A DNA stretch of 64,000 nucleotides from NCBI RefSeq assembly GCF_003334405.1, contig NZ_QOWM01000006.1. The stretch is one strand, 5' to 3'. The position numbers and the translations under genes were made by a program. Every line of letters starts with the position of its first letter. The stretch's first letter is position 1. The DNA comes from Escherichia coli. Lineage in GTDB: Bacteria > Pseudomonadota > Gammaproteobacteria > Enterobacterales > Enterobacteriaceae. Positions 30,700 to 30,859 of the stretch are shown in pieces. Below the pieces are notes generated by a model. That model made no database searches. It was not told the DNA's origin and was given only the letters and a program-made list of their open reading frames with translations.

Positions 30700-30790
30700 A
30701 AGGCGGCAAGCTCGAGAATTCCCGGGAGCTTACATCAGTAAGTGACCGGGATGAGCGAGCGAAGATAACGCATCTGCGGCGCGAAATATG
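30700..30790. repeat. ERIC (IRU)-like repeat element in the rpsB-tsf spacer
   Basis: Core GAGAATTCCCGGGAGCTTACATCAGTAAGTGACCGGGATGAGCGAGCG (30714..30763) matches the ERIC consensus, with two mismatches to each of the standard ERIC1R and ERIC2 primer sites. Confidence 0.55.
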
Positions 30791-30833
30791 AAGGGGGAGA
30801 GCCCTTATAGACCAGGTAGTACACGTTTGGTTA

Positions 30834-30859
30834 GGGGGCCTGCATATGGCCCCCTTTTT
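30834..30859 (+). terminator. Intrinsic terminator/attenuator between rpsB and tsf (GGGGGCC-tgcatat-GGCCCCC followed by TTTTT)
   Basis: Perfect 7-bp GC stem plus T5 read from sequence; consistent with partial termination that lowers tsf relative to rpsB. Confidence 0.7.

Follow-up and report, generated by a model that had tools for sequence, protein, structure and literature searches.

A complete ERIC element lies at the tip of a conserved post-stop hairpin upstream of the rpsB-tsf attenuator of Escherichia coli

The window analyzed here is a stretch of 64,000 nucleotides (64 kb) of Escherichia coli DNA. The surroundings of the repeat under study are the glnD-map-rpsB-tsf-pyrH-frr region of the K-12 type. 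The gene order is that of NC_000913.3, and the 441 nt that were compared are identical to K-12 MG1655. The features of the rpsB-tsf locus are collected in Table 1. The rpsB stop codon TAA (30657-30659) is directly followed by a second in-frame TAA. With rpsB ending at 30659 and tsf starting at 30917, the rpsB-tsf spacer is 257 nt long, which is the length given in the original prediction. The K-12 MG1655 records NC_000913.3 and NZ_CP097881.1 have no repeat annotated in this spacer, and a literature search on ERIC together with rpsB and tsf found nothing relevant. A minus-strand ORF of 350 aa (window 30611-31663) spans the spacer and tsf, and antisense ORFs of 95 aa are called as genes in two public assemblies (L095 and L098, positions 3178-3465). 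These long antisense ORFs over the spacer and tsf appear to be artifacts of gene calling opposite a coding region of strong bias.

Table 1. Features of the rpsB-tsf locus, in window coordinates.
Feature	Coordinates	Strand	Evidence
t44/tff leader RNA of rpsB, the 5' regulatory leader of the operon	29820..29906	+	Rfam RF00127, 83.5 bits against a gathering threshold of 44; tff in NC_000913.3
rpsB CDS (ribosomal protein S2)	29934..30659	+	Protein identical to WP_000246882.1
Conserved post-stop hairpin, 5' arm AAUAAGGC, overlapping the rpsB stop codons	30659..30666	+	Pairs with 30800-30808 in the minimum-energy folds of both alleles
Full-length ERIC, 127 nt, imperfect palindrome, MITE	30673..30799	+	Inverted-repeat arms, fold, consensus alignment, absence in the short allele
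ERIC central core, ERIC1R (reverse complement) and ERIC2 primer sites	30714..30757	+	19/22 matches per site
Rfam CssrA RF02798 match: right ERIC half, hairpin 2, and attenuator hairpin	30745..30854	+	136.2 bits against a gathering threshold of 93, E = 3.7e-29
Conserved post-stop hairpin, 3' arm AGCCCUUAU	30800..30808	+	Folds; GCCCTTA nearly invariant across the compared taxa
Conserved hairpin 2, GACCAGG ... UUUGGUU	30810..30832	+	Most Enterobacterales, Aeromonas, and Shewanella spacers
Rho-independent attenuator: stem AGGGGGCC/GGCCCCCT, 7-nt loop, T5 tract	30833..30859	+	Terminator scan, fold energy, conservation
tsf CDS (EF-Ts)	30917..31768	+	

An inverted-repeat scan of the spacer identified two terminal arms of 27 nt, 30673-30699 and 30773-30799, that are 74% complementary, and a 14-nt inverted repeat at the center between them. 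The arms together with the RNA fold set the limits of the element at 30673-30799. Its center carries the sites for ERIC1R and ERIC2, the standard primer pair whose sequences occur together in 233 papers. The reverse complement of ERIC1R has its best match at 30714-30735 and ERIC2 has its best match at 30736-30757. Each site has 3 mismatches, not the two per site that had been predicted. The 64-kb window has a single match to the 22-nt ERIC core pattern compared to 0 expected from shuffles. A search for the perfect 44-nt double-primer core with up to 3 mismatches allowed returned no match because the rpsB-tsf copy has 6 mismatches in total. In blastn searches with the ERIC segment, E. coli genomes have between 2 and 16 related places, with a median of 10. 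Five other E. coli copies were taken for comparison (yjbE-yjbF, hsdM-hsdR, mobH-ardC, ybhJ-ybhI, and pgk-fbaA), and their end-to-end alignment is gap-free. The ybhJ-ybhI copy has both ERIC primer sequences perfect, and they fall in the alignment columns equivalent to 30714-30757. Against the consensus of these five copies, which was built in this analysis and is not the published consensus, the rpsB-tsf element is identical at 98 of 127 positions (77%) with no gaps. This value is above the 70% that the original prediction had named for such an alignment, and identity to each of the five copies taken singly is 70-76%.

The rpsB-tsf element combines the features that mark ERIC membership: a length of ~127 bp, a palindrome that forms a hairpin, the core, similarity to the family, and dispersed multi-copy occurrence in intergenic positions and in transcription units. 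Chance resemblance to ERIC was considered and is ruled out by the core-pattern shuffles, the dispersed blastn matches, and the 77% consensus identity. These data identify 30673-30799 as a genuine and complete ERIC, a 127-nt non-autonomous enterobacterial MITE, inside the rpsB-tsf operon transcript. The ERIC-like repeat that had been proposed upstream of the attenuator is a complete ERIC element. The range of 30700-30790 given for it was slightly too narrow; the full element runs from 30673 to 30799.

The rpsB-tsf copy shares the 127-nt length, the imperfect palindrome, and the primer-site core with the ERIC/IRU/RU-1 family (Sharples & Lloyd 1990; Hulton et al. 1991; Wilson & Sharp 2006). Like the family, it is intergenic, transcribed, and multi-copy, and it is carried by some E. 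coli strains but not by others. In contrast, its tips are CTCCCCC/GGGGGAG where the family has TATACCC/GGGTATA, so that both arms are changed, and it is nested in a pre-existing conserved hairpin and not in featureless spacer. It also differs from the family at its ends: ERIC insertions are typically flanked by a TA target-site duplication, and none can be clearly made out at the rpsB-tsf copy. A TA is located at 30670-30671 to the left of the element, and the right end, where GGGGGAG runs into AGCCC, has no abutting TA. The missing duplication may reflect the age of the insertion, and the sequence-based ERIC assignment is unaffected by it. Genome-wide ERIC catalogues of E. coli exist, as stated in the passages of PMC10969869 that cite Wilson & Sharp 2006, and the rpsB-tsf copy should therefore be among the catalogued ones. 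A weak Rfam match to the Vibrio antisense RNA V_AS5 (24.6 bits against a gathering threshold of 96, E = 0.02) extends over the whole ERIC at 30672-30795. The match hints that the V_AS5 family may itself be built on an ERIC-like repeat.

ERIC loci are said, on the authority of Wilson and Sharp in 2006, to show presence/absence polymorphism among E. coli strains. In complete E. coli genomes, the rpsB-tsf ERIC is present in 4095 of 5426 and absent in the other 1331 (24.5%). The ERIC-free allele has a 134-nt spacer with flanks identical to those of the long allele. In this short allele, the 11 nt ACGCTCGTACG stand where the long allele has 134 nt, namely ERIC and the 7 nt on its left; the empty site is an 11-nt replacement and not a clean TA. 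Strains IAI39, APEC O18, and ST131 carry the short allele, and 042, O157:H7, O55:H7, and K-12 carry the long allele. We take IAI39 to be phylogroup F, APEC O18 and ST131 to be B2, 042 to be D, O157:H7 and O55:H7 to be E, and K-12 to be A. The genus comparison covered at least six Enterobacterales from a contig scan plus Salmonella, K. pneumoniae, and Franconibacter by exact-protein match, without E. albertii, E. fergusonii, Citrobacter, or S. bongori, and it found ERIC-free spacers of 116-149 nt in Enterobacter sp. Ag1 and Bisph1, Klebsiella sp., K. pneumoniae, Superficieibacter, Yersinia, and Photorhabdus. The Franconibacter spacer is 213 nt long and has an unrelated insertion of ~80 nt downstream of the attenuator (L091, ~2310-2425). 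Salmonella enterica has a 257-nt spacer with an orthologous ERIC that is 92.1% identical to the E. coli copy. The Salmonella copy has the same flanks (TAAGGCTTGATAAC... / ...GAGCCCTTATAGACC) and the same departures from the family consensus. A check for a lineage-specific insertion, which the original prediction had suggested, gives a clear signature, as the exact segment is absent from about a quarter of the E. coli genomes and from most other genera. We regard the identity of the element and its insertion as close to certain.

Other repeats are found in the neighboring spacers. A second palindromic element of ~143 nt is located at window positions 32691-32833, and the pyrH-frr spacer (32641-32931) is thereby 291 nt long. 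This element is absent from E. coli IAI39 and from loci L093, L096, and L102, which have a 149-nt spacer, and from Salmonella, which has a 146-nt spacer. It forms a long hairpin (-58.6 kcal/mol), and its center, GGAGCGTACAAAAGTACGTGAGG, resembles the ERIC core with a local alignment score of 21 against a shuffle maximum of 17. Judged by this resemblance, the element may be a diverged ERIC relative or a member of another MITE family. The glnD-map spacer of Salmonella (L088/L089, 105-196) contains an ERIC-like sequence with 75% identity over 92 nt in the opposite orientation, whereas the E. coli glnD-map spacer is only 61 nt.

The strong GC hairpin with T5 that was predicted to follow the repeat is found at 30833-30859, and it is the published rpsB-tsf attenuator. 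The stem (30833-30855) has 8 bp, 7 of them G-C, is followed by T5, and has a predicted energy of -18.1 kcal/mol. The attenuator begins 33 nt past the ERIC end and ~75 nt past the ERIC2 site. An intra-operon attenuator between rpsB and tsf was reportedly described by An and colleagues in 1981. The 30833-30859 hairpin is the same as the rpsB-tsf intra-operon attenuator of Aseev et al. 2008, and nothing differs between them. Monocistronic rpsB transcripts stop at the attenuator before tsf and about one-third read through, according to the passages of PMC2834685 that cite Aseev et al. 2008. Long-read RNA sequencing shows stepwise termination in the tff-rpsB-tsf unit (PMC8848933; PMC6131387). The attenuator is conserved across Gammaproteobacteria, ERIC-free species included. 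Its conservation in species that have never carried ERIC shows that its function is older than the repeat.

The ERIC-free spacers of Enterobacterales, Aeromonas, Shewanella, and Pasteurellaceae have a common layout of three hairpins. The first is the post-stop hairpin (hairpin 1), the second is hairpin 2 (ACCAGG...UUGGU), and the third is the terminator. The base of hairpin 1 (AAUAAGG/CCUUAUU) overlaps the rpsB stop codon, and its tip varies by taxon, being GCUC/GAGC, GAAGCC/GGCUUC, GAUGC/GCAU, or absent. The post-stop hairpin was recovered in 13 of the 14 folded ERIC-free spacers of other Gammaproteobacteria with apical stems that differ between them; equivalents were located in L001, L008-L015, L017, L020, L024, L090, and L091. 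One MAG has a compensatory change in hairpin 1, with AAAG-CUUU where AAGG-CCUU is found elsewhere. When the short spacers were aligned with MAFFT, RNAalifold recovered the terminator alone. The variable tips misalign in MAFFT/RNAalifold, and the evidence for the post-stop hairpin therefore consists of per-sequence folds. In the minimum-energy fold of the long allele, the position of the variable hairpin 1 tip is taken exactly by ERIC, around which the old base remains closed. These data show that ERIC has taken the place of the variable tip in a conserved hairpin that is older than the repeat and has its base over the rpsB stop.

We found no described function for the conserved post-stop hairpin, and it may deserve attention. 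The GCCCUUA of its 3' arm is complementary to the attenuator 5' arm (UAGGGGGC) as well. This complementarity, together with the location of the 5' arm over the rpsB stop, could couple tsf read-through to rpsB translation. The pairing model suggests that the post-stop hairpin may be a translation-coupled anti-antiterminator, but equilibrium folding gave such a switch no support.

The short E. coli allele has an ancestral-type tip because the sequence ACGCTCG is common to it and Enterobacter. Simple vertical descent fails to account for ERIC in Salmonella and in phylogroups A, D, and E when B2 and F have the short allele. One possibility is that ERIC inserted before Escherichia and Salmonella diverged and that B2/F later reacquired a tip of the ancestral type; the other is a spread of the ERIC allele by recombination. 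Between the two E. coli alleles, the flanks show no difference up to the junctions, and Salmonella differs within ~20 nt of ERIC. A recombination tract would therefore have been short or later eroded.

The folding of the element was compared between strands and between lineages. The ERIC sense RNA forms a hairpin of -70.1 kcal/mol compared to -56.1 kcal/mol for the antisense RNA, which makes the sense strand 14 kcal/mol more stable. The folding z-score of the whole spacer is -6.9. The E. coli and Salmonella ERICs have 10 differences, and none of them breaks a predicted pair. Four of the 10 are at positions that are unpaired in the E. coli fold. The remaining six are at predicted paired positions and all preserve pairing; they include a compensatory double substitution (A30699G with T30773C), a compensatory paired indel (C30675 with G30793), and two changes from G-C to G-U. 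Across eight additional E. coli sequences of the long allele, of which three are variant and five identical, SNPs fall at five distinct positions, and four of these are unpaired. These comparisons, which cover two lineages and a few SNPs, are suggestive of an RNA-level constraint on the predicted ERIC hairpin.

The 92% identity of the ERIC copies is by itself no proof of selection because the flanks are also highly conserved, with 95% identity between E. coli and Salmonella in the spacer outside ERIC. ERIC could be a purely neutral relic, with its conservation reflecting the short time since a horizontal transfer between Salmonella and the E. coli lineage. The similar conservation of the rest of the spacer agrees with this idea, and a transfer fits the patchy distribution in which Salmonella and phylogroups A, D, and E carry the element and B2 and F have the ancestral-type short allele. 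However, pairing is preserved by six of six differences at paired positions, including the double substitution and the paired indel, and stability is strand-asymmetric. These properties are unexpected under pure neutrality, although the sample consists of two lineages and a few SNPs, and we consider a neutral relic unlikely.

The effect of ERIC on the attenuator was examined by equilibrium folding. The first 16 nt were masked to mimic a terminating ribosome. The terminator stem has a probability of 0.98 in all five cases, which were the long allele, the short allele, each of these with the ribosome mask, and the CssrA-like RNA. ERIC is predicted to be structurally self-contained because the stem probability is the same in every case. 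An attenuator switch operated by ERIC or by a ribosome at the stop codon was considered, and it has no equilibrium support in these folds.

In the explanation that we propose, ERIC occupies the variable tip of the old post-stop hairpin, 33 nt upstream of the ancestral attenuator. This attenuator would halt about two-thirds of the transcripts ahead of tsf, going by the read-through fraction in the literature passages cited above. On the mRNA, ERIC is predicted to form a long imperfect hairpin of its own inside the old one, and hairpin 2 and the terminator are predicted to fold exactly as in the ERIC-free alleles. Since the downstream folds are unchanged by ERIC, the attenuator is predicted to work independently of the repeat. 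ERIC would then be a tolerated passenger with its hairpin maintained at the RNA level, or at most a 3'-end stability/processing module for rpsB transcripts. The conservation of the hairpin with compensatory changes argues against the passenger reading and for a hairpin that is more than neutral junk. The original prediction suggested that the repeat may influence RNase processing or the rpsB:tsf ratio; this is plausible, but the folding predictions give it no support. For the rpsB:tsf ratio, an effect and a non-effect of ERIC are both statements drawn from equilibrium folding.

The right half of ERIC, hairpin 2, and the attenuator hairpin match the Rfam family CssrA (RF02798) over model positions 1-111 of 111. 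CssrA of Shigella flexneri was detected as a Northern band of ~110 nt (PMC3071730; Peng et al. 2011). Its 3' end was taken from a terminator prediction, its 5' end was estimated by the band size, and it is listed among the sRNAs for which independent initiation of transcription was predicted (PMC3071730). The table in the same paper gives map/rpsB as the neighbors of cssrA. The match of the Rfam model falls in the rpsB-tsf spacer, which indicates that the original annotation is loose and that the gene context was apparently mislabelled. CssrA is curated as an sRNA gene, whereas the sequence found here is half a repeat plus the operon attenuator, and it is likelier to be a 3' fragment of the rpsB mRNA.

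An alternative is that CssrA is an independent sRNA gene whose promoter lies inside ERIC, in which case the role of ERIC at rpsB-tsf would be to supply this promoter. The own start site predicted by the discoverers and the discrete ~110-nt band (PMC3071730) are consistent with such a gene, as is the curation of CssrA as a gene in Rfam. We did not detect a sigma-70-like promoter in 29500-32000, and a promoter inside ERIC was rejected as the primary reading on this basis. The 5' end comes from the band size and the 3' end from the terminator prediction, the map/rpsB placement in the source table conflicts with the mapping of the Rfam model, and the RNA ends at the attenuator, the usual end of rpsB transcripts. 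An independent CssrA gene is very improbable given these data. A stable 3' decay fragment is the simpler explanation because the RNA ends where most rpsB transcripts end. CssrA is most likely the 3' fragment of attenuated rpsB transcripts that is protected by the terminator and cut near the ERIC apex. Endonucleolytic cleavage near the apex or in the right arm of ERIC would leave a terminator-protected fragment of ~110 nt, which would be CssrA. An insulated ERIC passenger combined with CssrA as a processing fragment is slightly more likely than not in our estimation. The explanation proposed above, taken as a whole statement, is moderately probable.

The idea that ERIC directs RNA processing has a precedent in Yersinia. 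ERICs in Yersinia alter mRNA decay via RNase E, as described in the passages of PMC2229807 and PMC3184786 that cite De Gregorio et al. 2005. Exposure of an RNase E site within their 3' inverted repeat depends on the orientation and on the ribosome, according to the relevant passages of PMC2229807, PMC3184786, and PMC10969869. Like these elements, the rpsB-tsf copy is co-transcribed just past a stop codon and is predicted to form a long RNA hairpin. By analogy, CssrA as a processed RNA species at rpsB-tsf would fit cleavage inside the element. Unlike the Yersinia ERICs, the rpsB-tsf copy has an intrinsic terminator downstream, and the Yersinia precedent depends on the orientation (class A or B).

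The Yersinia precedent of a ribosome-dependent, orientation-dependent RNase E site is one of the arguments for ERIC as a functional cis-regulator at rpsB-tsf. Terminating ribosomes would partly open the hairpin and expose an RNase E (or RNase III) site, and rpsB mRNA stability, hence the rpsB:tsf ratio, would be tuned in ERIC-carrying strains. The stem pairing kept between E. coli and Salmonella, the compensatory changes, and G-U pairs on the sense strand only are consistent with this role. The base of ERIC, CUCCCCC at 30673-30679, starts 14 nt past the stop, which is the edge of the ribosome footprint, and a CssrA RNA of ~110 nt fits cleavage inside ERIC. However, 24.5% of E. coli and most genera do without ERIC despite the essential nature and high expression of S2 and EF-Ts, and the predicted attenuator fold is the same with or without the element. 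In a literature search, no published cleavage of the rpsB-tsf spacer by RNase III or RNase E was found. We judge a cis-regulatory ERIC to be somewhat unlikely.

Every component considered here, the ERIC elements, the rpsB-tsf attenuator, and CssrA, is already described. The CssrA "sRNA" of Rfam and Shigella is best read as a probable mRNA 3' fragment consisting of half an ERIC and the operon attenuator. It is quite unlikely that the ERIC hairpin is a selected RNA module that directs rpsB transcript processing and CssrA release and is linked with the host hairpin as an anti-antiterminator switch. Such a module may have been under selection since before, or across, the Escherichia/Salmonella divergence. 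If so, S2 and EF-Ts expression would differ between the ERIC-plus (A, D, and E among the strains compared) and ERIC-minus (B2 and F) phylogroups. The ERIC-plus and ERIC-minus alleles of E. coli, with flanks that are otherwise identical, are a natural allelic pair with which one could test for an effect of a MITE in an essential, highly expressed operon.
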